Source: a virus | Lineage: Duplodnaviria; Caudoviricetes | IMG/VR virus record: IMGVR_UViG_3300031211_000007 | Location: 1-52,664 of that record | DNA length: 52,664 nucleotides | Strand: one strand, 5' to 3' | Shown here: positions 1 to 17,972 of the stretch, piece after piece | How the letters are laid out: each line of letters begins with the position of its first letter | Position numbering within the stretch: the stretch's first letter is position 1 | Program-made: the position numbers and the translations under genes | The notes under the pieces: generated by a model | What the model was told of the DNA's origin: nothing | Databases searched by the model: none | Seen by the model: the letters and a program-made list of their open reading frames with translations, nothing else

Positions 1-6
1 ACACTA

Positions 7-384
7 TTATACTTTCAATACATATGCTTTACAGAAGTTTTTCATAACTTCATTAATATTTTTAACTCTAACCAAACCTTCATTTGCAAAGGTGTATAAT
101 GGTTTATCTTTTTCGAGGTACTCATCGCTGCTGTCTTCCGTGTTAACCCTTAGCAAATTTGAATTTGTCTCTCTCATCTCTTCAATCAATTCGTTGTGGG
201 TGTCAATGTAACCTGAATCGGTTTTGCCTATTGTCTCAAGGTCTAACATCCCTGCCCATACTTTAGCCACATCGTTTGAAATAAACCAAGTTTCATCTCC
301 TTTGCTACTTTTAGTAAATGAAAATCTATAGTCGAACGGTAAAACTAATGGTACTAAATCTAATATGGTTTCTTTTTTTAACAA
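7..384 (-). CDS. hypothetical protein
   Basis: 125-aa ORF whose start overlaps the upstream stop; no recognisable motif. Confidence 0.75.
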   Translation of the reverse strand: MLKKETILDLVPLVLPFDYRFSFTKSSKGDETWFISNDVAKVWAGMLDLETIGKTDSGYIDTHNELIEEMRETNSNLLRVNTEDSSDEYLEKDKPLYTFANEGLVRVKNINEVMKNFCKAYVLKV

Positions 385-626
385 CTATTTCCATAATAAA
401 ATACTTTGTTTATTTGTTTTAGTGTTTCTTTGCTCGGTTCGTCTTGTAAGACCTCATGACTCCTTTGCTTATGAAGTAAGCAGTTATTCTCAAAAGTCAT
501 ATCATTGGACATTACTTTATCTTTCACTTCCCTCCACTTAACGGATGTTGGCAAACCTTCGAACTTCATATACATATAATCTTTGATGTTAATGTCATTG
601 ATTCTAATCAGGGTTTCTTTTTTCAT
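378..626 (-). CDS. hypothetical protein (start revised to MKKETL)
   Basis: ATG at 626 follows the conserved leader of promoter 645-690; the track's start at 647 lies inside the promoter. Confidence 0.75.
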   Translation of the reverse strand: MKKETLIRINDINIKDYMYMKFEGLPTSVKWREVKDKVMSNDMTFENNCLLHKQRSHEVLQDEPSKETLKQINKVFYYGNSC

Positions 627-644
627 TGTGTTTTGATTACGATA

Positions 645-690
645 CAAATATAAGAATAATATCTTGTTTATTATGTTAATGAAATGTTAA
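645..690 (-). promoter_or_regulatory. repeated cassette promoter, copy 1
   Basis: TTAACA-TTTCA-TTAACA-N21-TATATTTG on the minus strand; TAnnTTTG is the Bacteroidota primary-sigma -7 element. Confidence 0.85.
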
Positions 691-692
691 AA

Positions 693-962
693 CTATAAAT
701 GGGTAGTATGTCCACAATCTAAGCATTCGATATAAGCTTTACCGCCTTGAGTTACCGCCACGGTCTCATCAGCTAACATCATCCAACGAGTTTCTTTTTT
801 ATTAGTTATCCCCTCGTCTTTACAATTAGGACATTCAGCATCCCCAAGCCTTTCTTTCATTGTAGGCATATATTTAGTATCAACTAAATTAGGGTATGCA
901 CTTTCAAGTACCTCTTTGTCATTCTTCATCGGCTTAAGTACCGCTTGATAAAACTTTGCCAT
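693..962 (-). CDS. zinc-ribbon protein (start revised to MAKFYQ)
   Basis: CPNC...CLDC pairs; ATG at 962 follows promoter copy 2. Confidence 0.75.
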   Translation of the reverse strand: MAKFYQAVLKPMKNDKEVLESAYPNLVDTKYMPTMKERLGDAECPNCKDEGITNKKETRWMMLADETVAVTQGGKAYIECLDCGHTTHL

Positions 963-986
963 TATCTTGTGTTTTTGATTACAATA

Positions 987-1032
987 CAAAGATACGAATA
1001 ACATTCGGTTTAAACTGTTAATGAGATGTTAA
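987..1032 (-). promoter_or_regulatory. repeated cassette promoter, copy 2
   Basis: TTAACA-TCTCA-TTAACA-N21-TATCTTTG. Confidence 0.85.
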
Positions 1033-1034
1033 AT

Positions 1035-1316
1035 TTATTCACTATAAAAGTCTGGGTTATTTACGTGCTGGTTATAGTATTCTTTAATCTCTTCAATGCT
1101 TTCCTTAAATTCATCTGTCAAGGTTATAACATCCCCATTTTCTCCACGCTCTTCGATGCATTCTTGATGAAGGTCAAATATACCCTTTAACCAATTATTC
1201 TCTGCCTGAAGCAAATCTAATGCCCTTTTACTGTATAGATACTCTTCAACTAATATCTCTTTCTTAACCCTTAATAATGATTTAACATTCTTGTTGCTTT
1301 TATCTAGTTCGCCCAA
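1035..1316 (-). CDS. hypothetical protein
   Basis: 93-aa ORF with TTG start downstream of TATCTTTG (1333-1340). Confidence 0.7.
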   Translation of the reverse strand: MGELDKSNKNVKSLLRVKKEILVEEYLYSKRALDLLQAENNWLKGIFDLHQECIEERGENGDVITLTDEFKESIEEIKEYYNQHVNNPDFYSE

Positions 1317-1332
1317 TTTAATAGTGTTTAGG

Positions 1333-1385
1333 CAAAGATAACAAAATTAAATGTAATATCAAAGGTTTAGGACACTTTCGTGTAC
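1333..1385 (-). promoter_or_regulatory. second-type promoter with ACAC-N4-GTGT-CCTA element
   Basis: TACACGAAAGTGTCCTA upstream of TTTG...TATCTTTG; the same element recurs at 1775-1826. Confidence 0.6.
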
Positions 1386-1388
1386 TAT

Positions 1389-1421
1389 AAAAAAAAGGGA
1401 TAGCCCACAACAGCTATCCCT
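1389..1421 (-). terminator. intrinsic terminator
   Basis: AGGGATAGC/GCTATCCCT stem followed by a U-run on the minus strand. Confidence 0.7.
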
Positions 1422-1448
1422 CACACTAATCAAAACACAGAATAAACC

Positions 1449-1754
1449 CTATTTGTTTTGTATTTCCTTTGCAATATCTTTTAAGTGATTATGGAATTTA
1501 GTAAAGTCTTCCAAACTCTCCCTAACCGTAAAGTTACTTTTATATAATGGGTCTTGAATATAAGTAGTTACCTGCTCATCCACATCAAATTCGTTAGCTA
1601 TCTCAATAAAAGACTTAGTGTTGAGGTCTTCAAAATAAAATATCATATCTACACCACCATCAGTCCATTTCTCAATCTCAGCTGAGTTCCCGTGAATCTC
1701 ATGTATTATAAAATCATTACTCTCTAAAACCTTAATTAATTCATCTCTACTCAT
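1449..1754 (-). CDS. hypothetical protein
   Basis: 101-aa ORF with its own promoter and a downstream terminator. Confidence 0.75.
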   Translation of the reverse strand: MSRDELIKVLESNDFIIHEIHGNSAEIEKWTDGGVDMIFYFEDLNTKSFIEIANEFDVDEQVTTYIQDPLYKSNFTVRESLEDFTKFHNHLKDIAKEIQNK

Positions 1755-1774
1755 AGTATTTATTTTTTAGTTCA

Positions 1775-1826
1775 CAAAGATAATAAAAACCTAGGACTCT
1801 TCCAAGCCCTAGGACACTTTTGTGTA
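1775..1826 (-). promoter_or_regulatory. second-type promoter with ACAC-N4-GTGT-CCTA element
   Basis: TACACAAAAGTGTCCTA upstream of TATCTTTG. Confidence 0.6.
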
Positions 1827-1828
1827 TA

Positions 1829-2389
1829 TTAGTAATTTTGTATTTGTGTTAGTTTGAACTCAGCCGTATATCTACCGCCGTTATGTTTTCTACAGCAATT
1901 CCCACAGGCTGATAGTCTCTTTTTTCTTCTGTGGCTTGCAGTTTCCTCACCGCAATTATGACACTTTAACGTGTATTTAGATTTATTTACATCTACTTTA
2001 GTACTCCCACATCTTTCCCCATCACATCCGATTGATAATGCAATAGTCCTCCAATGCCAATCGTGGTTGGATTTACCTCTAATCTCTTTGTCTATTGCGT
2101 GGGCTATTTCGTGTAGCATTGTATTTTCCCAATCCGCAAGTGTCTCACTAGAGTTTTGAATTAACCACATAGATAATTTTATCTTTTTATCAACTAAGGT
2201 AGTAACACCTAAACCTTTACGTATACGTCTTGAACTACATACGCCAAAAGAACTTTTTTTATTGTTAAATTCGAATCTCCAATTTAGCTTATTCATGTTG
2301 AATACTTGACCCTGAACCTCAAAGTCTGTAGCCATTAATTTAGATGTCATTTCTCTAACTTTCGATAGTGTAAAATCTTGTTTTCTCAT
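1829..2389 (-). CDS. SprT-like zinc metalloprotease
   Basis: FGVC, TMLHEIAHA, NHDWHW and C-terminal CHNC/CGNC zinc ribbon. Confidence 0.85.
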   Translation of the reverse strand: MRKQDFTLSKVREMTSKLMATDFEVQGQVFNMNKLNWRFEFNNKKSSFGVCSSRRIRKGLGVTTLVDKKIKLSMWLIQNSSETLADWENTMLHEIAHAIDKEIRGKSNHDWHWRTIALSIGCDGERCGSTKVDVNKSKYTLKCHNCGEETASHRRKKRLSACGNCCRKHNGGRYTAEFKLTQIQNY

Positions 2390-2412
2390 TGTGTGTGTGT
2401 TTGATTATGATA

Positions 2413-2458
2413 CAAAGATACAAATAATATTTAGTTATTTATGTTAATGAAATGTTAA
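2413..2458 (-). promoter_or_regulatory. repeated cassette promoter, copy 3
   Basis: TTAACA-TTTCA-TTAACA-N21-TATCTTTG; first TTAACA supplies the TAA of the upstream gene. Confidence 0.85.
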
Positions 2459-2694
2459 ATAATTTTACCAATGTATTTATTGATGTCATTGCCCGCCATT
2501 TGTTTAGCCCTTGCAATAAATTCATTACGGCTAACATACATTAGAGTATCTTTAACTTTCTCATCAAACCAATATGATACTCCCTCATCTTCCGTATGTT
2601 CCAGCAGAATATCGTTTGTGACGTTATATAAACCATCACTCATACCAATCCCTTTATTTAAACTGAATTGACCTACTTTTCTTAAAATTTCCAT
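2455..2694 (-). CDS. hypothetical protein
   Basis: 79-aa ORF between promoter copies 4 and 3. Confidence 0.75.
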   Translation of the reverse strand: MEILRKVGQFSLNKGIGMSDGLYNVTNDILLEHTEDEGVSYWFDEKVKDTLMYVSRNEFIARAKQMAGNDINKYIGKII

Positions 2695-2720
2695 AGTGTA
2701 AATGTGTTTTGATTACAGTA

Positions 2721-2766
2721 CAAAGATACAAATAACATCCTGTTTATTATGTTAATGAAATGTTAA
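2721..2766 (-). promoter_or_regulatory. repeated cassette promoter, copy 4
   Basis: TTAACA-TTTCA-TTAACA-N21-TATCTTTG. Confidence 0.85.
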
Positions 2767-2785
2767 AGTTTAAATTAATTCACTT

Positions 2786-2852
2786 AAAAAAAAAATAGGC
2801 GTAGGTTGGAGTCTACTCTTCCAGTGTTGATGTTACACTGCGCCCGTCGTCC
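2786..2852 (-). ncRNA. candidate ~67-nt structured small RNA
   Basis: GC-rich island directly after promoter copy 5, no ATG ORF, three stems (GGC/GCC, CAGUGU/ACACUG, GUAG/CUAC), ends in U10. Confidence 0.6.
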
Positions 2853-2856
2853 AATA

Positions 2857-2902
2857 CAAAGATAAGAATAAACATTGGTTATTTGTGTTAATGAAATGTT
2901 AA
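2857..2902 (-). promoter_or_regulatory. repeated cassette promoter, copy 5
   Basis: TTAACA-TTTCA-TTAACA-N21-TATCTTTG; lacks the protein-gene leader seen in the other copies. Confidence 0.85.
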
Positions 2903-2918
2903 AACTATTAAAATTAAA

Positions 2919-2975
2919 TTAACAAACCTTTAACAGTTATTTGCATTGTAGAACCTATTAATATTTCTATCTTTG
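2919..2975 (+). promoter_or_regulatory. repeated cassette promoter, copy 6 (divergent)
   Basis: TTAACA-AACCT-TTAACA-N32-TATCTTTG. Confidence 0.8.
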
Positions 2976-3001
2976 TATCATAATCAAAACACATTTACAC
3001 T

Positions 3002-3121
3002 ATGGGAATTTATGAAATTGAGACTTTAATTGAGGTTAGTGACGTTGACGGAGTTTGGAGTATGTTAAATGATATGGGCGACCTTGAAGGAATGGCTTAT
3101 ATTGAAGGGAAATACTTTTAA
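3002..3121 (+). CDS. 39-aa acidic peptide (not in ORF track)
   Basis: MGIYEIETLIEVSDVDGVWSMLNDMGDLEGMAYIEGKYF; fills the space between promoter copies 6 and 7. Confidence 0.7.
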   Translation: MGIYEIETLIEVSDVDGVWSMLNDMGDLEGMAYIEGKYF

Positions 3122-3174
3122 CAAAATATTAACACTTTTTTGCATTACAGAACCTATTAATATTTGTATCTTTG
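3118..3174 (+). promoter_or_regulatory. repeated cassette promoter, copy 7
   Basis: TTAACA-AAATA-TTAACA-N32-TATCTTTG. Confidence 0.8.
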
Positions 3175-3199
3175 TATCATAATCAAACACACAAAAACT

Positions 3200-3346
3200 A
3201 TGAACACTATCAAAAACCAAGTTAAAAGTTACTTAACTCACTTAAAAGTTTATTTAGAACTTTATATTTTTGTTTTCTTTGTTGTAACTGCATTACTCGT
3301 TGTAATGGCTTATTTAAACTTTTTTATTAATGAATTGTTATTTTAA
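3200..3346 (+). CDS. 48-aa single-pass membrane protein (start revised to MNTIK)
   Basis: hydrophobic LYIFVFFVVTALLVVMAYL; ATG after the conserved leader. Confidence 0.7.
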   Translation: MNTIKNQVKSYLTHLKVYLELYIFVFFVVTALLVVMAYLNFFINELLF

Positions 3347-3388
3347 CACTTCATTAACAATTTAAACTAAATATTATTTGTATCTTTG
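3343..3388 (+). promoter_or_regulatory. repeated cassette promoter, copy 8
   Basis: TTAACA-CTTCA-TTAACA-N21-TATCTTTG. Confidence 0.85.
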
Positions 3389-3418
3389 TACCATAATCAC
3401 ACACAAAAACCCAATACT

Positions 3419-4078
3419 ATGAATACTCAAAACACAAATTTCTTAGATTTCTTACTTACTTTAAACGGTTTAAATGGTGCTTCAATAGTTAGTATCAAAG
3501 ATTATTTCGTAGATGCTAACAGAAAAGCGAGTAAATGCATTGTAAGTGGTTACAAAAACATTACTATCAATGTCAATGTCAATAGAGAGAGACAAAAAGA
3601 CAAAAACAAAGAAACTCTATTGAATTTAGATAGAGAAGCATTTTTTAATCAGTTTGTTAATGGCAAAGATGATAAATTTACTTTTGACGTATTCAATAAG
3701 GCGGTAAACGCTTTAATTGACCAAACTACAAAAGTAGGTGGTAAATTATCAAATGGTAAAATTAAAACCGAAAGAACAAACGGACAGCAAAATCAACTAG
3801 ATACTTATACAAATATCAGCAAAGGCTTAAAAATACATAACGAGACAAAGCAAGTTTATATAAGTGGTAACTTTCAAACTTCTAGCAAATCAGATAAAGG
3901 AAATTTACCACAATACAGAAAAACCAATAAGCAAACCAAAACTAAAATTCAGGATATTCTTAAAAATGAACTAAATTTAAAGAGTTTTCAATATAGAACT
4001 TTAGTATTAAGTAATACGGAACTAATTAAAACCTCTGGCGTTCAGTTTAACGGACAAAAAATTACTATCGGACTGTAA
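3419..4078 (+). CDS. hypothetical basic protein (start revised to MNTQN)
   Basis: 219-aa ORF after promoter copy 8. Confidence 0.8.
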   Translation: MNTQNTNFLDFLLTLNGLNGASIVSIKDYFVDANRKASKCIVSGYKNITINVNVNRERQKDKNKETLLNLDREAFFNQFVNGKDDKFTFDVFNKAVNALIDQTTKVGGKLSNGKIKTERTNGQQNQLDTYTNISKGLKIHNETKQVYISGNFQTSSKSDKGNLPQYRKTNKQTKTKIQDILKNELNLKSFQYRTLVLSNTELIKTSGVQFNGQKITIGL

Positions 4079-4119
4079 GTAAACTATATCTGAAACAAGT
4101 CCTTACAAACCATTAAAAT

Positions 4120-4148
4120 GAGCCTATTAAGTTAGGCTTATTTTTTTT
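4120..4148 (+). terminator. intrinsic terminator
   Basis: AGCCTA/TAGGCT stem followed by a T-run. Confidence 0.6.
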
Positions 4149-4215
4149 ACCTTATAATAAAAACTTTAACACTATATAGTTGCATATGTCAAGAATCCAT
4201 ATAAGACGTTCTAAC

Positions 4216-4443
4216 TACCCCTCCCCCCGCAGGAGACCCTATATACCCCTCCCCCCGTATACCCCCTTACGTATACCCCTATAGGGTCGCTCATATATGG
4301 CAGTCGGACCTACACGTAAATTTTTTTCAGAAATTTTTAGCAAATCTTAAGACCCCTTTTTTATACGTCGAAACATTACCCCTAAAAAAAAAAGGCACCC
4401 CTTCTTATATACAGAATCCAAAATTTTTTTCAGAAATTTTTTG
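4216..4443. repeat. non-coding C-tract / ACCCCT repeat region, candidate replication origin
   Basis: about seven ACCCC(C)T motifs, duplicated TACCCCTCCCCCCG, duplicated AAATTTTTTTCAGAAATTTTT. Confidence 0.55.
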
Positions 4444-4461
4444 GCCCTTTTTTAAGGTCGG

Positions 4462-4493
4462 TTTGTATATGTGGATTCTTTTACGTATATTTG
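4462..4493 (+). promoter_or_regulatory. canonical Bacteroidota -33/-7 promoter
   Basis: TTTG-N20-TATATTTG. Confidence 0.7.
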
Positions 4494-4519
4494 TCTCCTA
4501 ACATTAAAAAGATATCATT

Positions 4520-4690
4520 ATGATTGCAACAGCTTTAATTGTTACAGCATTCTTTTTCACATTCAATGTGACATGGGATAAGATATATTTCAAGAGATAT
4601 AATTGGGTAAACAATTTACTCCTATCTTTATTAACCACCCTTATTATGTTTTACATACTTGATTTGGCATATACTTATTGGTATGTTTGA
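4520..4690 (+). CDS. 56-aa membrane protein (not in ORF track)
   Basis: MIATALIVTAFFFTF...LLLSLLTTLIMFYILDLAY; two hydrophobic segments. Confidence 0.65.
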   Translation: MIATALIVTAFFFTFNVTWDKIYFKRYNWVNNLLLSLLTTLIMFYILDLAYTYWYV

Positions 4691-4691
4691 T

Positions 4692-4784
4692 ATGATGATG
4701 AATCGGGATATCAACTGGAATTACAATATGGTCCTTTCGGCTGTGTTTGTTGTTCTATATATCATAATGAGTTCATTAAATTAA
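4692..4784 (+). CDS. 30-aa membrane peptide (not in ORF track)
   Basis: MMMNRDINWNYNMVLSAVFVVLYIIMSSLN; tightly packed between neighbours. Confidence 0.5.
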   Translation: MMMNRDINWNYNMVLSAVFVVLYIIMSSLN

Positions 4785-4790
4785 ATTGCT

Positions 4791-4967
4791 ATGTTTTTAC
4801 TACAGATATTTATGATTACTTTCCTTTTGCAAATGTTTATTTTAATAATCTTGACCTTATCTATATTTGGTGAGGTTAAATGGAAGTTTGTTTTATTATT
4901 TTCCATTTTTGTTGCGGCGGTATGTACCTTTGTTGTTTACGTATTGAAAGATGTGTTAATGCTGTGA
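4791..4967 (+). CDS. 58-aa two-TM membrane protein (not in ORF track)
   Basis: MFLLQIFMITFLLQMFILIILTLSIFGEVKWKFVLLFSIFVAAVCTFVVYVLKDVLML. Confidence 0.65.
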   Translation: MFLLQIFMITFLLQMFILIILTLSIFGEVKWKFVLLFSIFVAAVCTFVVYVLKDVLML

Positions 4968-4990
4968 TACTTATATATAAATCATAGGTT

Positions 4991-5299
4991 ATGGGAAATA
5001 CATTGAATGGTGTTGCAAGTAGTATTGCACGTTTTAGCAAAGAGGTATTGGTTAAGGTAATACCAGCACATGATAAGTTAAAGCATTTTTATATTGGTGC
5101 ATTGGGATATTATTTATTTGATATGTTCTTTGATTGCTTTACATCGCTTATTATGGTGCTATGTGGTATTGTTATATCGGAGATAGCTCAAAAGTTATCT
5201 GGTGGTAAGAATGATTTTAAAGAGATTGTGTTAGATATTATATTTACGATATTGCCAGCTTTGTTGAGCAATGTTGTTATTGAGTATGGATTAGTTTAA
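4991..5299 (+). CDS. membrane protein, VanZ/DUF2279-like
   Basis: HDKLKHFYIG...SEIAQK...DIIFT pattern with three hydrophobic segments. Confidence 0.65.
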   Translation: MGNTLNGVASSIARFSKEVLVKVIPAHDKLKHFYIGALGYYLFDMFFDCFTSLIMVLCGIVISEIAQKLSGGKNDFKEIVLDIIFTILPALLSNVVIEYGLV

Positions 5300-5317
5300 T
5301 TATTTAAAAAGAGGTAA

Positions 5318-5677
5318 ATGGCTACAATATTAAAGAAGAATTTGGTTAGGGAAACAACTGAGGTGGTACATGATAAAGAAATCATTGTTACATTGACCGT
5401 TGACCAAGAGGTTGAATTAAAGCTTAAGGGTACTAGGGGTTCTGGTGAGACCATAGGTATCAAAGAGTTATATGAACAGTTATATGGGTCTATTGAGGCT
5501 CAAAAGAGAGATGGACCTATAAGTACTTCTACGGTTAAATCTAAGAAAGGTGATAATAAGATGATTTCCCTATATGATTTAAGGACTCACAATGCGATAT
5601 CTACTTTAGATGTTGAGACATTATCTAAATTTGATGGTATCATTAAAAATTTGATAGATAGTCACAAAAAAAGTTAA
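5318..5677 (+). CDS. hypothetical protein
   Basis: 119-aa ORF. Confidence 0.75.
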   Translation: MATILKKNLVRETTEVVHDKEIIVTLTVDQEVELKLKGTRGSGETIGIKELYEQLYGSIEAQKRDGPISTSTVKSKKGDNKMISLYDLRTHNAISTLDVETLSKFDGIIKNLIDSHKKS

Positions 5678-5751
5678 AATCTTAGCAATTATACATAAAC
5701 ACCTGATTTTTAGGGTGATAATTTTATATTTATATAGTATACAATACAATT

Positions 5752-6030
5752 ATGTGTAATGTTGCCAAAGCTAAGAAATTATTAAAAAAAGTAAAAGACA
5801 GAACTGAAAGGGACTTATATTGCTTAAGAAATGCTTCATTAGAGTCTGTAAAGGTGGACTCTGACATGCTACCTACTATTGAAATCATGTGTAATGGCGG
5901 TGGATATAATTCTCCCTTGTATGAGGTTGACGGTAACATAAAGCTTAAGTACTTAAGTGATGAGAACAGTAAAACTTTGGCTTATCTAGCCTCTGAATAT
6001 TCCATCGTATTTGATTTAAGTAAACTTTAA
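5752..6030 (+). CDS. hypothetical protein
   Basis: 92-aa ORF preceded by TATTTATA (5727-5734). Confidence 0.65.
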   Translation: MCNVAKAKKLLKKVKDRTERDLYCLRNASLESVKVDSDMLPTIEIMCNGGGYNSPLYEVDGNIKLKYLSDENSKTLAYLASEYSIVFDLSKL

Positions 6031-6048
6031 CGTTTTAAAATATGATTT

Positions 6049-6630
6049 TTATTTCTTCTTAGTGGGTCTTTTTCTTTTGGCCTTTACTTTACCTTTATTC
6101 TTTTTTTTCTTTTTACGTTTCCATGTGGGTTTACCCAGCGTTTTGCTACGCAGTCCTTCATCGATTAGGTTTCTATCAACACCTAGCTTCTCGTTAAGTA
6201 TTTTAACGTTTAGTTTCCATTTAATCTTAGACCTTTCTTTATGTTCTTGGAAGCAGAATCCGACATATTTTTCTACGTCTTCCTTTTTCCATTTATTTAC
6301 TTTAGCTATGTGCGCATAGGCTTCTTTCTTTTTACCTATTGCTATGGTCCTACCTATATGTTTAACTTGATGACATCTAGGACATAGGCTTACTAATCCT
6401 TTAAGTAATTGTACACCATCTTTTTGGTAAATCCAAATTTCATGACATTCTAAATCATGTCTGTAACCTTGATTTGTACCCACGTCTTTACATATCTCGC
6501 ATTTGTGATTAGCTTTTGCGTAAGATTGTTTTCTAAGTCTATCCCATTCTTTTTTTGGTAATATGCTTCTGACGTTGGAGTAGAAGGATGTTGATGGGAC
6601 CAGTTCTATTTTAAGTTTTATTTTCGACAT
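6049..6630 (-). CDS. HNH endonuclease
   Basis: CEIC...LECHEIW...LCPRCHQVKH; Lys-rich C-terminal tail. Confidence 0.85.
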   Translation of the reverse strand: MSKIKLKIELVPSTSFYSNVRSILPKKEWDRLRKQSYAKANHKCEICKDVGTNQGYRHDLECHEIWIYQKDGVQLLKGLVSLCPRCHQVKHIGRTIAIGKKKEAYAHIAKVNKWKKEDVEKYVGFCFQEHKERSKIKWKLNVKILNEKLGVDRNLIDEGLRSKTLGKPTWKRKKKKKNKGKVKAKRKRPTKKK

Positions 6631-6657
6631 ATACTAATAAATATATGCGAGGTGCGA

Positions 6658-7140
6658 TTATGGTTGTATTCTCTGTAAAGTGTTTGAGTTGTATACTAAA
6701 AAGTCTTTAGTAAATTTATATCTTGGGACCATCCATCCTTTTGTTTCTGACGCTGGGTCACCAGCATTATCTTTAAAGATAAAATTTTGTTTATATTTTT
6801 CTATGATATCGAGTAGTTTATTCTTTCTTATATACCAGATTTCGTTAAGGTTTATGAAATAAGTTACAAACCATTCGGCTTCGCTAACCATGATACCAGA
6901 TTTTTTACCTCTACATTGCACCTCTACAAAAATATTACCAGTATCCCATGTTGGTTTGCAGAATAAATCTGTCTTTATTTCGTATTTTATATTTTTACCT
7001 TTCCTTCGTATAATGGCATCATATCGATTATCATCATTTTTGGATATCAGTTCACCACCAAGTTTTTTAAGGTGATTGATGACAAAGTCTTCCCCTTCCT
7101 TGCCCTCACTGAGGTCTTCTCTAAAACTGTAGTTCGCCAT
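6658..7140 (-). CDS. PD-(D/E)XK nuclease-like protein
   Basis: GKEGE...YD...YEIKTD...TGNIFVE...KSGI motif set. Confidence 0.7.
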   Translation of the reverse strand: MANYSFREDLSEGKEGEDFVINHLKKLGGELISKNDDNRYDAIIRRKGKNIKYEIKTDLFCKPTWDTGNIFVEVQCRGKKSGIMVSEAEWFVTYFINLNEIWYIRKNKLLDIIEKYKQNFIFKDNAGDPASETKGWMVPRYKFTKDFLVYNSNTLQRIQP

Positions 7141-7218
7141 AAGAAATTTTATTTAAAGATAACCCTTATTTATAAAAAAATCAAGATATTTATAGTAGTA
7201 AGCAGACAATAAAAGACA

Positions 7219-7473
7219 ATGAAAGATAAAAAAAGGATAGTGGCGTTTATTTATAAGTTATTCATGATAGTGTTGATATTATCTCAGATATATTTACTGA
7301 TATTCCCTGTTGTTAATTTATTCACGATATTAACCAATCTTGTTTTGATAGTATATTTAAGTTTTAGGTTTTACCTATTACATAAATTATGTGAGAATAC
7401 AGATAAGATAAATAAGAGCGTAATACGTTTGATTGAGACCTATTGCGAGGGCTGTGATAAGGAGTCTGAGTAA
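7219..7473 (+). CDS. two-TM membrane protein
   Basis: two hydrophobic helices; TATTTATA at 7187. Confidence 0.65.
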   Translation: MKDKKRIVAFIYKLFMIVLILSQIYLLIFPVVNLFTILTNLVLIVYLSFRFYLLHKLCENTDKINKSVIRLIETYCEGCDKESE

Positions 7474-7474
7474 A

Positions 7475-7747
7475 TTAAAATTTAAAATTCGATAAATGTC
7501 GTTCCGTTAGTTTTTTAGCTAAATCGGTATCGATATTGAATACGTTAGTTATGGCTGCTATGATATCAGCTGATACCATTGCATGGTTTAGTGTATTGCT
7601 AGTTTTATAATACTTCTTAGTTTGACGTATGTAACCTTTGGGTATTATTATAGCGCTACTCCACTTACGTTTTTCATTTCGAATTCTTTTTATTCTAAAT
7701 TCTTTTGAAATAAAATCGGTTATTATATCTTCTATTGTTTCTCGCAT
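7475..7747 (-). CDS. hypothetical protein
   Basis: 90-aa ORF; TATTTATA on minus strand at 7751-7758. Confidence 0.65.
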   Translation of the reverse strand: MRETIEDIITDFISKEFRIKRIRNEKRKWSSAIIIPKGYIRQTKKYYKTSNTLNHAMVSADIIAAITNVFNIDTDLAKKLTERHLSNFKF

Positions 7748-7815
7748 AGTTATAAATACTTGCCAAATATTTAAAAAAGTAGTATATTAGGCAATAAACT
7801 AAAAAATTAAAATTT

Positions 7816-8133
7816 ATGGAATTAGAAATTAACAGTGATGGACTAGATAAGTTATTATCAGATAAAGAAATTGTAATAATTGACTTTTGGGCACCTTGGT
7901 GTGGTCCTTGTAAGACGTTAGGTCCTATCGTAGAGGATGTTGCTGAGAGTAACACTGATGAAAATGTTGCTATTACTAAGGTAAATGTTGATAACGACAG
8001 TGCGTTGGCTAGGACTTATGGTGTTAGGAGTATACCTACAATAGTATTTATTAAAGAGGGTGTGGTTGTAGACCGTACAGTGGGGGTTAAATCCAAAGAT
8101 GAGATAGAAGAGATTATAAAAGGCCTTAAATAA
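7816..8133 (+). CDS. trxA: thioredoxin
   Basis: DFWAPWCGPCK, GVRSIPT. Confidence 0.95.
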   Translation: MELEINSDGLDKLLSDKEIVIIDFWAPWCGPCKTLGPIVEDVAESNTDENVAITKVNVDNDSALARTYGVRSIPTIVFIKEGVVVDRTVGVKSKDEIEEIIKGLK

Positions 8134-14393: not shown

Positions 14394-17300
14394 TTATTTA
14401 GGATTACTAACCTTTGTCTTAATGCCACTCTTGGCGGTGTAAGATAGTTTGATATTACCACCTTCTTTTAGGTTACCATCCATAACCTCATCAGTTATAG
14501 GGTCCTCAACGTACTTCTGAATTGCTTTCTTAAGTGGTCTAGCACCATATTCTTTATGATACCCCTCTTTAGCAATGTAATCCATAGCACTCTTATTCAC
14601 TTGCAAGTAATAATTTAACTCGCTTACCCTACTTTTAACAATATCAATTTCGTTTTTAATTATTTCATTGATATCTGTTTGTTTAAGTGAATTAAAGATG
14701 ATTGTTTCATCTATCCTATTTAAAAATTCAGGTTTAAATTTATCTTTTAAAGCCTTTTGAATTATTGATTTAGCACGTTCTTCCTCGTTTATAATAGAGT
14801 TCTTGGTCTCAAAACCAATGCCCTTACCAAAATTACTTAACTCTCTAACACCAATGTTAGAAGTCATAATAATGATTGTATTCTTAAAGTCTACCTTCCT
14901 ATCATTACTGTCAGTTAAATAACCTTCATCTAGAAGCTGTAACATTAAGTTGAAGATGTCTTCATGGGCTTTCTCAATTTCATCAAATAAGATTACAGAA
15001 TAAGGTCTACGTCTAACTGCTTCAGTAAGTTTACCCCCTTCTCCGTATCCAACATAACCTGGGGGTGCTCCAATTAATTTAGTCATGGAGAATTTTTCCA
15101 TGTACTCTGACATATCTACCTTTATTAAGGATTCTTTATCACCGAATACCTGTTCAGCAATTACTTTAGATAGATGTGTTTTACCTACACCTGTTGGACC
15201 TAAGAAGATAAAAGAACCCATTGGTTTATATGCGTTTCTAATACCTAATCTACTTCTTCTAATACATTTAGATATCTTACTAACTGCCTTATCTTGACCG
15301 ATAACGATATCTTTCAAGTCTTTCTCAAGGTTCTTAAGAGTGTTGGCCTCTACTGACGTCAATTTGGTTAATGGGATACCTGTCATAGTTGATATTACAG
15401 TTTCTACCATTTCACTAGTTATCTCCGTAAAGTTAACTTCATTATTATTTTCCCACTCAAACATCATGTTTTCAAGCTCTGTCTCTAACTTTAATCTATC
15501 GTTTTTAAGCTTAGCGGCATCTTCAAAGTCTTGCTGTTTGATGACAGCTTTCATCTCTTCTTGAATATCAACTATCTTATCCCTTATAGTTTTTATTTTT
15601 TTAGGTAGCTTAACGTCTATGTTGGTAAACGCACCAGTTTCATCCATTATATCAATGGCCTTGTCTGGCATAGCTCTATCAGACACATACCTGTCAGCTA
15701 ATTTGATAATTAGGTCAATGACCTTATCACTGTACTTAACTTTATGATAATTTTCGTAATTATCTTTTATGTTGGTTAGAATATCTTTAGTCTCGTCTAA
15801 AGATGGTTCTCTAACTAGAACTTCTTGAAACCTTCTTGTTAAAGCACCGTCAGTTTCAATATTTTCACGATATTCATCCAATGTTGTAGCACCTATGATT
15901 TGAATTTCACCTCTAGCTAAAGCTGGTTTAAAAATATTAGATGCGTCTAGCGCTCCTGATGCGCCACCAGCACCTACTATGGTGTGTAACTCATCAATAA
16001 ACAAAACAACATCGGTGTTGTCTTTAAGTTCTTCTAAAATAGCTTTCATTCTCTCTTCAAATTGACCACGGTACTTAGTACCTGCAACAATAGAAGCTAA
16101 ATCTAATGAGAATATGCGCTTACCTAATAATGGTTTAGGTGCGTCACCACTGTTTATTAATAAGGCCAAACCTTCTACTATTGATGTGTTATGAGTCACA
16201 ACATAATTATCCGTGACATATAAGTGGTTCTCATCTTCAATTTTAATACACTTAGCCTCTTTAACACCAATAAAATTAATATCGGTAATATTATTTTTAA
16301 GAGTGTCTGAATATTGATAATTTAATGGAAGTCGCTCTATTTTTCTTTGTAACCTAAATAAATTTCTAGGGGTTTTATACCTAATTGTTAAAACGTAAGA
16401 TAATTGCCCTTTTTTACGTTCATCTTTATAAGTGAAAAAAGTTTGTTTTTCTTTAATTTTTGCTACACCACCTATAGACCAAATTAATTCTTGAATATCT
16501 TTTATTAATTGTTGACTAACACTAGAATATTGAATTGTACCTGTTTCTGTTACCGTACCATCTGAATCTAACAACCCTTGTAATAAACTAATTTTTTGAT
16601 TAAAAGAACCATTTTTATATTTTTCTGGTATAAATTTGGTTTCAGATTTTGTTTCAGTCAAATTTAATGAATTTGTTTCTTTTAATAATGGATGTACCCT
16701 ATCATTCTTATAATGTCTAGTTCTAGCCTCTAAATATTTAGAATCACTTAAACCTAATCTATAAGAATTTGTTTTATTTTTAACTTTATTTAAGTTTAAT
16801 TGATAATCCTCACCAATTATTTCACTTACTAACTCAGGGATTTCAATATCAGCACTTGTAAATGATAATTCACTTTTACCAAAATGACCATCACCCAATA
16901 ATAACCCCATTAAATATGGGTCAATTATATAATTCTTATTATTTTCAATTTTAGAAAAGAGTTGATTTGATACTAAAGGAATTTTCAGTTCATAATTAGT
17001 GTTTTCGATTTTATCCTTTATATCAAGGGTATTGATAGTTGACCATGTGTGGTTTCTATTTTCGCCTTTTGGAATTCCATATACTTGCCATAAATGTTCA
17101 CCACATGCTTCAGTACTCCTACCATCTTTAAATGTTATTTGATAAATATCTTTCTCACCTTGTGGATAGGTACCAATTACCTTAGTTACGTCACCATTAG
17201 GTGTTAAAACATCATCACCAACTTCTATTTCACCCATAGTAGTCCAACCATTAGGTGTAAGTATTTTAGCTGTTAGAGGTTGTGCCTTACCCACACCAGC

Positions 17301-17972
17301 TTCACCAATCAGCACTGGGTTATTTTTCTTTCTTCTAGATAATATTGCTGTGACTCTTCTAATCTCATCACCTCTGCCCACAACTGGGTCGATTCTGTTT
17401 TCGGATGCTGCTCTAGAGATATCTCTACAAAAATTATCTAGTACTTCAGTTTTAGAAGAGTTTTTGGATTTTCTTTTTTTAGGGTTATTAAGTGGAATGT
17501 TCTCAAACTCACTATCGGTTGGTTCATTTATGTTGTTTTCGGGTTCCATTAGTAATTGTTTAAAAGTTTTATAATTCATTTTAAGTTTATTGAACGATTT
17601 TTGTGCATCACACTTCGTTTTAAGTAGCGCTAACATCAAATGCTTTTCTGAGATAAGATTCTCATTCATATTATCACACTCTTTCTTCATTTGATTGATT
17701 AAAAACTTAGTAGACTCACTAGGTAATATCTCTGGTGAAGAACTATAAGCTTTATTTGTATTTATAACACTATTAGTTAAGAGTGAATCAACTTGGTCAA
17801 ATAAACTTTCAATATTGAAATTCGCATTCATCAATATTTGATAAACAGCATTGTCGGCATGTAAAATAATCGATAAGGTTATGTGCTCTGGTCTTATTTT
17901 ATTGTCTTCATAATCTTTAGCACTACTCATAGCACCTCTCATAATTTCACTTAACGTTTTATTGAATTTCAT
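14394..17972 (-). CDS. clpC: ClpC-type AAA+ chaperone with intein
   Basis: Clp-N repeats, GEAGVGK|T, FIDELH, UVR coil, GPTGVGKT, GARPL. Confidence 0.95.
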   Translation of the reverse strand: MKFNKTLSEIMRGAMSSAKDYEDNKIRPEHITLSIILHADNAVYQILMNANFNIESLFDQVDSLLTNSVINTNKAYSSSPEILPSESTKFLINQMKKECDNMNENLISEKHLMLALLKTKCDAQKSFNKLKMNYKTFKQLLMEPENNINEPTDSEFENIPLNNPKKRKSKNSSKTEVLDNFCRDISRAASENRIDPVVGRGDEIRRVTAILSRRKKNNPVLIGEAGVGKAQPLTAKILTPNGWTTMGEIEVGDDVLTPNGDVTKVIGTYPQGEKDIYQITFKDGRSTEACGEHLWQVYGIPKGENRNHTWSTINTLDIKDKIENTNYELKIPLVSNQLFSKIENNKNYIIDPYLMGLLLGDGHFGKSELSFTSADIEIPELVSEIIGEDYQLNLNKVKNKTNSYRLGLSDSKYLEARTRHYKNDRVHPLLKETNSLNLTETKSETKFIPEKYKNGSFNQKISLLQGLLDSDGTVTETGTIQYSSVSQQLIKDIQELIWSIGGVAKIKEKQTFFTYKDERKKGQLSYVLTIRYKTPRNLFRLQRKIERLPLNYQYSDTLKNNITDINFIGVKEAKCIKIEDENHLYVTDNYVVTHNTSIVEGLALLINSGDAPKPLLGKRIFSLDLASIVAGTKYRGQFEERMKAILEELKDNTDVVLFIDELHTIVGAGGASGALDASNIFKPALARGEIQIIGATTLDEYRENIETDGALTRRFQEVLVREPSLDETKDILTNIKDNYENYHKVKYSDKVIDLIIKLADRYVSDRAMPDKAIDIMDETGAFTNIDVKLPKKIKTIRDKIVDIQEEMKAVIKQQDFEDAAKLKNDRLKLETELENMMFEWENNNEVNFTEITSEMVETVISTMTGIPLTKLTSVEANTLKNLEKDLKDIVIGQDKAVSKISKCIRRSRLGIRNAYKPMGSFIFLGPTGVGKTHLSKVIAEQVFGDKESLIKVDMSEYMEKFSMTKLIGAPPGYVGYGEGGKLTEAVRRRPYSVILFDEIEKAHEDIFNLMLQLLDEGYLTDSNDRKVDFKNTIIIMTSNIGVRELSNFGKGIGFETKNSIINEEERAKSIIQKALKDKFKPEFLNRIDETIIFNSLKQTDINEIIKNEIDIVKSRVSELNYYLQVNKSAMDYIAKEGYHKEYGARPLKKAIQKYVEDPITDEVMDGNLKEGGNIKLSYTAKSGIKTKVSNPK
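16188..17285 (-). mobile_element. class 3 intein (366 aa) with LAGLIDADG endonuclease, in ClpC Walker A
   Basis: starts AQP, ends VVTHN|T; HLW, AKC, THN (WCT triplet); GLLLGDG and GLLDSDG. Confidence 0.9.

Follow-up and report, generated by a model that had tools for sequence, protein, structure and literature searches.

Few phage-encoded small RNAs have known roles. The nut sites of lambdoid phages and the put RNAs of phage HK022 are promoter-proximal antitermination signals that act in cis, once per early operon. Viral solitary repeat units (Racr, the RNA anti-CRISPRs) are presented in the available text of PMC10651486 as promoter-proximal small RNAs with no cas genes nearby, and promoter-early stem-loop (PeSL) cassettes are described for T4-type phages in the accessible parts of PMC4122927 and PMC2839356.

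Here we describe an element at positions 2786-2852 of a 52,664-nt stretch of viral DNA (the window; IMG/VR record IMGVR_UViG_3300031211_000007), which an initial annotation had read as a dedicated early small RNA, possibly a decoy for a host RNA-binding or defence protein. Like nut and put, it would be a short RNA with two adjacent hairpins, near a presumed early promoter that heads a terminator-containing array; it differs from them in that several copies occur per array, most of them with a T run and then a new promoter behind them, and in that the unit of the cultured phage Larrie has no downstream gene. The window copy has the setting of Racr, just past a promoter of a viral genome and without cas genes beside it, and the available text of PMC10651486 also has Racr as phage-encoded noncoding RNAs placed right past their own promoter, unlinked to cas and thought to titrate a host protein. 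By that same description, however, Racr are defined by their likeness to CRISPR repeats, which sets the present family apart: it is a predicted two-hairpin RNA with conserved junctions, carried by phages of different promoter types. With PeSL cassettes, as far as the accessible text of PMC4122927 describes them, the element shares its setting, namely a hyperplastic small-gene region with repeated promoter and terminator bounds in a phage with a T4-type terminase. PeSL are presented in the accessible parts of PMC4122927 and PMC2839356 as gene-cassette boundary motifs conserved within one phage group, whereas the element fills a slot, has a covarying hairpin and is conserved across unrelated phage groups. 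Searches of open main texts by motif strings, which returned unrelated primers only, and by topic found no account of the family; it is seemingly undescribed, and a prior description could exist beyond those texts and Rfam 15.

A promoter-driven slot in a cassette array

The window phage is large and tailed, and it encodes a large terminase of T4 type, a portal and a thymidylate synthase; the window is a fragment, approximately 15% complete by CheckV. The 24 sequencing runs listed for positions 1-6000 are all DNA runs of a salt-lake metagenome, from which the window itself may derive. Positions 1-3400 carry small ORFs with a repeated promoter region ahead of each. A 16-mer, TTAACATTTCATTAAC, is common to these small-gene cassettes: five minus-strand copies with at most one mismatch start at 675, 1017, 2443, 2751 and 2887, and at up to three mismatches there are 15 matches against 3.75 expected, a number reached by none of 100 shuffles. 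Downstream of each 16-mer lies a TATCTTTG-type box, which fits the TAnnTTTG promoter consensus of Bacteroidetes as given in the available text of PMC10309648. Four of the five copies lead into a UAAUCAAAACACA...AUG leader and an ORF. The fifth, at 2887-2902 with its TAnnTTTG-type TATCTTTG box at 2857-2864, leads into GGACGACGGGCGCAGUGUAACAUCAACACUGGAAGAGUAGACUCCAACCUACGCCUA and a T10 run (2852-2786) and into no gene. The next, separate promoter copy (2721-2766, with the 16-mer at 2751-2766 and TATCTTTG at 2721-2728) serves a downstream 79-aa ORF (2694-2455) without a Pfam match; this promoter copy marks the limit of the RNA unit and lies outside the RNA. The surrounding array thus has the repeated promoter and terminator motifs around variable small genes that mark the PeSL type, while the element fills one of its slots and forms no cassette boundary. 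Its unit is the first in the leftward array and adjoins a divergent promoter region.

All features of the unit lie on the minus strand. From the position of the box we infer an RNA start a few bases beyond it, at about 2853-2851. The conserved 5' junction ACGGG (2843-2847), recognized from alignments, is followed by the variable hairpin P2 (2821-2842), recognized from covariation, which has a closing pair C2842-G2821, a stem CAGUGU (2840-2835)/ACACUG (2827-2822) apparent from both sequence and covariation, and a loop AACAUCA. Next come a purine linker AAGA (2817-2820), part of a (G/A)AAGAG segment conserved in alignments A1-A4, and a 3' hairpin, GUAG-ACUCCAAC-CUAC (2801-2816), which the alignments show to be near-invariant. 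The tail, GCCUA and U10 (2786-2800), contains a terminator-like run that is the presumed 3' end.

The initial annotation had noted that this promoter copy is followed by a GC-rich, RNA-like stretch ending in U10 where the others have a protein leader, and each part of that description holds. The 57-nt stretch ahead of T10 (2795-2786) has a GC content of 0.544 against 0.25-0.27 in its flanks, which places it in the top 0.4% of 57-nt segments; it contains no ATG, although a TTG-started frame of 13 codons is present. The fold proposed at the same time was recovered in part. The minimum free energy structure of the window copy (-13.6 kcal/mol) contains a GGGCG/CGCCU closing stem and the CAGUGU/ACACUG hairpin, but it pairs GAG/CUC instead of GUAG/CUAC, and its stability does not exceed that of shuffled sequence (z = -0.21; equalled or bettered by 77 of 200 shuffles).

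A terminator scan of positions 1-4200 called canonical terminators inside the array at 1813-1790 and 1422-1395 and a further site at about 4115-4144, and left 2786-2816 uncalled. The only local hairpin at U10 is GUAG/CUAC, and no G+C-rich hairpin with a T run, as in an intrinsic terminator, was found there. Because the U run comes without such a hairpin and the scan is silent, the 3' end of the RNA is uncertain. GGGC/GCCU pairing can form in the window copy and may do no more than aid termination.

Among the nine ORFs neighbouring the element, a SprT-like protein is the sole match above the Pfam cut-off; HypA, Peptidase_M90 and Lar-like matches fall below it, and no Cas family was found in this set. 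The SprT-like ORF (1829-2389, minus strand; 186 aa; Pfam E = 4e-9) is of metalloprotease type with a cysteine-rich tail, and homologues with 31-40% identity adjoin RNA family members at L096, L134, L113 and L123, four loci that amount to three contigs since L096 and L134 are the same one. A small ORF at 693-1004 (minus strand) resembles the restriction-alleviation protein Lar weakly and below threshold (E = 0.005), and its homologues lie beside RNA family members in L103, L107, L130 and L131. Searches of IMG/VR through the SprT-like ORF or a 219-aa ORF returned no relatives.

Two other parts of the window may be recorded here. A 1192-aa ORF (14394-17972, minus strand) matches, with its C-terminal half, a PHROG annotated as ATP-dependent protease (E = 1e-228), and with its N-terminal part ATPase families named terminase, helicase loader or primase in PHROGs. 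The 440 nt at 4080-4519 contain no ORF of any length. They hold C-rich TA(C/T)ACCCC(T)CCCCC repeats, about four times at 4215-4290, and two copies of AATTTTTTTCAGAAATTTTT, near 4319 and 4420; TACCCCCT-type or G-rich tracts also occur just 3' of RNA family members in L140, L150, L152, L157, L164 and L198. Candidate roles for this ORF-free stretch are an origin, a packaging site and a further class of promoter.

A widespread family of phage elements

The initial annotation could not match the element to the consensus of tRNA, the hammerhead or the purine riboswitch, and database searches gave no match either. No family in Rfam 15 reached its gathering threshold on the element, and at E values up to 10 only chance-level matches appeared there (E = 3.5-8.4), none of them to a ribozyme or riboswitch model. 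ARAGORN found no tRNA or tmRNA in the window, nor did the Rfam tmRNA model find anything in it; across 16 loci, ARAGORN returned only an unrelated tRNA-Glu, in one of the 16. The element is thus like Rfam 15 families and like tRNA and tmRNA in its size and multi-hairpin shape, but has no significant match to them.

Judged by sequence comparison, the window element is one copy of a widespread putative RNA family that occurs in several unrelated phage lineages and that many phages carry in several copies, and we regard it as very probable that this is a genuine small-RNA gene family. Pattern and covariance-model searches together found well over 150 distinct copies in phage contigs. The 3' half of the element gave six BLAST matches in each of two of five related phage records, and in those two the matches sit just past a TAnnTTTG box and ahead of the next promoter. 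The pattern GTAGACTCCAMCCTAC followed by a U-rich tail occurred in 7 IMG/VR stretches and 37 metagenome stretches, yielding 51 distinct copies; with the tail constraint dropped, the pattern AGAGTAGACTCCNNCCTAC occurred in at least 119 IMG/VR stretches, yielding at least 115 distinct copies. An exact pattern that included the window copy's own P2 had no matches, and a megablast of window positions 1-8000 against the phage collection returned nothing.

We used two family models, of which R1 represents the 3' module and R2 is the second family model. The window copy, which is part of both seed alignments, scores 56 bits with R1 and 70.7 bits with R2. In the window, R1 recognizes a single copy, and no other match there exceeds 14.8 bits; in 44 pattern-derived loci it gave 85 matches, some overlapping one another, and in 80 loci centred on relatives' terminase genes (970,757 bases) it found no copies. 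Three loci (L105, L111 and L119) come from near-identical relatives of the window phage, with shared proteins mostly 92-100% identical. Four copies lie on one strand within 5 kb of L119, 0.4-3.3 kb apart and with genes between them. Since three of these lie past the window's left end, the window phage very probably has further copies. A comparison with type III antitoxin repeats, which the initial annotation had proposed, gave no likeness: the window has a single copy instead of a ToxI-like tandem array, and with the L119 spacing we found no tandem repeats directly upstream of a toxin gene.

Among cultured phages, a single one carries the family: Tenacibaculum phage Larrie (ON950054.1), the sole match to the window's form, with units at around 18.8 kb and 19.4 kb. 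The Larrie stretch that we fetched contains two strong R1 matches and a weak third (15.5 bits), and a search of the whole Larrie genome added a weak match near 41.2 kb. The second form of the family had no match in cultured phages, and neither form had a match on plasmids. About a fifth of the IMG/VR matches listed, as counted by eye, sit within a few hundred bases of the end of a locus or contig, and given such copies the family repeats appear to break metagenomic assemblies. One contig with several family copies also encodes a 388-aa ORF with a Cas12f1-like/TnpB TNB domain (L137:10596-11762), with no link to the RNA seen.

Conserved junctions flank a covarying hairpin

Family members share a common layout of GGG, a pyrimidine, the variable hairpin P2, a purine, AAGA(G), GUAG-ACUCCRNC-CUAC and a tail, with a minimal form of about 45 nt. 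The GGG junction is invariant in 22 of 22 rows of A2, a MAFFT alignment of 22 members fitted to no structure, and is present in most rows of A3 and A4. The closing pair of P2 is CG in 12 and UA in 10 rows of the MAFFT alignment; in a model-fitted set of 53 distinct rows it is CG in 30, UA in 19 and AU in 2, with two rows gapped; and in an independent IMG/VR set of 111 distinct rows, drawn from 100 of 115 new loci, it is CG in 79 and UA in 31. In none of these sets is a row unpaired at this position. Changes on both sides were found at all seven P2 pairs. In three alignments, 74-87% of P2 cells are paired, compared with 23-52% when the partners are slid by one to three columns, and the observed covariation score was reached by none of 500 shuffles of each alignment; these figures are to be read with the sequences being interrelated and the latter two alignments (A3 and A4) being fitted to the model. 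On the strength of the alignments, the P2 hairpin is real and strongly covarying, so that covariation among homologues, which the initial annotation had named as a check, is present. Since P2 keeps its pairing through two-sided changes, the constraint acts on the RNA.

This constraint bears on a reading in which there is no RNA function at all and the element is an emptied cassette, a PeSL-like recombination module or the DNA site of a protein. The array of small genes with repeated promoters does resemble T4-type PeSL cassettes as the accessible parts of PMC4122927 and PMC2839356 describe them, the phage has the T4-type large terminase and portal, and many of the listed copies lie at contig ends, as repeats do; for a DNA site, it also counts that GAGTAGACTC is a near-palindrome. 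Against these points stand the preserved P2 pairing, the constant orientation of the element to its upstream promoter, and the expectation that a remnant would not remain invariant across unrelated lineages that have no neighbour proteins in common. An operator, moreover, would be expected at a fixed promoter distance, whereas here the distance varies (23-33 nt between ACGGG and GUAGAC). We therefore consider a purely DNA-level or vestigial element improbable.

The 3' hairpin, P3, behaves differently from P2. It is 99% paired with almost no variation and, because its sequence is fixed, covariation is uninformative on it. Rare variants keep GUAGAC while pairing it with GUCUAU in another register, or lose CUAC entirely, which makes the primary sequence GUAGACUCC the most constrained part of the element. 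The closing stem, on the other hand, is not conserved across homologues, where its pairs are mostly G-U with the U-rich tail. Pairing between tail and GGG was possible in 9 of 53 copies, against 7.1 ± 1.5 for shuffled tails, and between tail and linker in 31 of 53, against 32.1 ± 1.4, so that neither shows an excess. We accordingly rejected the closing stem, and with it the three-way junction of the initial annotation, as a family feature. Translation of the TTG-started 13-codon frame is likewise unlikely, as the frame is not conserved and the 23-33 nt between ACGGG and GUAGAC fall in all three phases among homologues.

Invariant unpaired bases around a freely covarying helix are the conservation pattern of ribozyme and aptamer cores. 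In the family, unpaired GGG, AAGAG and ACUCC are invariant and flank a helix that covaries freely in both sequence and length, which, together with the small minimal form and a multi-copy, promoter-driven gene, would suit a new catalytic or ligand-binding RNA. Such an RNA could cleave itself, as a ribozyme, or bind up a small molecule, as an aptamer; the latter might serve as an RNA "sponge" sequestering a small-molecule signal of host immunity. The absence of any Rfam 15 ribozyme or riboswitch match even at E up to 10 speaks against this, as does the lack of covariation support for any tertiary pairing: inspecting the printed alignments by eye, we found no pairing of the loop with the 5' end, GGG or linker that held across subfamilies. 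We rate a new ribozyme or aptamer as rather unlikely.

The element is kept while promoters and neighbours change

We surveyed the flanks of the 54 distinct copies that had enough flanking sequence. A TAnnTTTG-like motif lies upstream of the 3' hairpin in 50 of them, at 30-97 nt and mostly at 30-57 nt; the pattern is loose, and a few of the 50 are probably false. Within 16 nt past the hairpin, 43 copies have five or more consecutive T and 11 do not. A co-directional ORF with its own promoter-like motif follows within 400 nt in 33 copies, such an ORF without the motif in 7, and none within 400 nt in 14. The orientation of the element to the upstream promoter is constant, and the promoter type itself changes: TATAAT-like boxes precede the RNA in L103, L107 and L133, and GATAAT-like boxes in a lineage of mostly ~60-kb contigs, four sampled contigs of which encode a GroEL-like protein.

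In the GATAAT-box lineage, which takes in L150, L152, L144, L149 and some 45 further IMG/VR loci, tandem paralogous proteins of 75-136 aa alternate with the RNA. These have no Pfam match and lie on the element's strand in 62 of 62 cases, and the units are separated by long inverted repeats, AAAGTGTGAC...GTCACACTTTT.

No protein neighbouring the RNA is common to different lineages. Among 1399 ORFs within 3 kb of the RNA at 160 loci, no cluster accompanies it across lineages as a partner protein would, and the largest cluster (50 loci) belongs to one lineage only and has no member in the window, its close relatives or Larrie. Relative orientation to the neighbours also differs. In the GroEL-type lineage, the flanking genes without exception run in the same direction as the element (62/62, 28/28 and 18/18). 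The Larrie unit diverges from one annotated gene, converges on the next and leads into a strong two-way terminator hairpin, behind which no gene lies. That the RNA is kept while promoter type, neighbours and orientation change points to a stand-alone RNA gene, and since the RNA is shared and the neighbour proteins are not, the RNA is the conserved unit and its promoter and neighbours are interchangeable. Comparison thus establishes family membership, the structure of P2 and independence from neighbouring genes, and lends support to the dedicated, promoter-driven small RNA that the initial annotation had seen in a single copy.

The same arrangement can be read in another way, by analogy with nut and put, as a cis-acting element whose nascent RNA modifies its own polymerase, alone or with a phage factor. 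The modified polymerase would pass the U run and the terminators of the cassettes, and the short RNA would be a by-product of unmodified polymerase. The window copy heads a leftward array beside a divergent promoter region, with the canonical terminators at 1813-1790 and 1422-1395 inside it, and no strong hairpin stands ahead of the U run, so that leaky termination is possible; two adjacent hairpins with conserved unpaired bases also resemble the layout of put. In the GroEL-type lineage, moreover, the constant co-directionality fits such a role, and the element is found some 0.8-2.9 kb downstream of a conserved gene of opposite orientation that encodes a small protein. A cis-acting role is hard to reconcile with the Larrie unit, which opposes both neighbours and ends at a strong terminator hairpin with no gene to be reached, or with the 14 of 54 copies that have no co-directional ORF within 400 nt and the 33 whose downstream ORF has a promoter-like motif of its own. 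Several copies per array, as in the 5 kb of L119, would also be needless for a single antitermination site. We judge a cis-acting signal unlikely.

In some loci (L103:1424-1612, L107 and L138:2108-2320), two family copies face each other, an arrangement that allows a helix of 11-14 bp to form between the two strands across the invariant core. Predicted folds of facing-copy regions are more stable than those of shuffled sequence (z = -3.1 and -3.0).

A base-pairing regulator is a further candidate, in which GUAGACUCC would be a seed for a complementary site, GGAGUCUAC, in host or phage RNA, and P2 a scaffold. It would explain why conservation peaks in a 9-11 nt primary sequence that stays fixed even where its pairing partner shifts register or is lost. 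An exact complement, predicted to form an 11-14 bp helix, lies 52-69 nt downstream in L103, L107 and one Larrie copy, but by inspection of the opposite strand these complements are a second, convergent copy with its own promoter-like sequence. Since they belong to convergent copies, they need not share a transcript with the element and are weak evidence for a seed. Sites complementary to the loop are no more frequent in the window than expected (33 matches, 32.9 expected), and nearly every GGAGTCTAC in the fetched loci and the whole Larrie genome is an element read on its reverse strand. A seed-based regulator, too, seems to us an unlikely explanation.

The variety of promoters also weighs on an RNA anti-CRISPR, in which the module would mimic the hosts' CRISPR repeat, resembling GAAGAGUAGACUCCAACCUAC, and trap Cas proteins. 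As with the RNAs that the available text of PMC10651486 describes, this is a promoter-proximal small RNA of a phage with no cas genes nearby, and it sits among early, anti-defence-like genes (Lar-like and SprT-like). But at least three promoter types suggest diverse hosts, which a single CRISPR repeat family would not be expected to span, and the conserved part extends beyond a repeat-sized 3' block to the junctions on both sides of the variable hairpin. We rate mimicry of a CRISPR repeat as very unlikely.

A proposed role in trans

The reading we favour, if tentatively, is that of an abundant early RNA that acts in trans by titrating a conserved partner. Driven by one of the repeated early promoters of the phage, the stand-alone gene would yield a transcript some 65 nt long that ends at U10. 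The RNA would comprise the GGG junction, P2 as a spacer hairpin free in sequence, the AAGAG linker and the near-invariant hairpin displaying ACUCCRNC. Made early and in quantity from several gene copies, it could act in trans, its invariant 3' module serving as a recognition surface that binds and titrates the partner, most plausibly a host RNA-binding or defence protein. From the comparisons we infer transcription, the RNA ends, action in trans and the partner; "early" is said solely because the promoter is the same repeat that precedes the small-gene cassettes. As a complete mechanism, read from sequence features, this account is plausible but by no means the probable outcome.

An RNA with a recognition module is favoured by the invariant displayed sequence and the conserved junctions, in an RNA carried by otherwise unlike phages. 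That no neighbour protein follows the RNA across lineages fits a host partner, without showing one. The co-directionality seen in the GroEL-type lineage counts against action in trans, as it would fit a cis-acting role equally.

An RNA kept nearly letter for letter across unlike architectures, promoters and neighbours must serve a need common to many infections. The family is directly testable, since the cultured phage Larrie carries copies. Should it prove to be a decoy, an antitermination signal or a new ribozyme or aptamer, a widespread RNA-based tool would be added to phage biology, and the same readings, if true, would account for many unannotated gaps in phage genomes.
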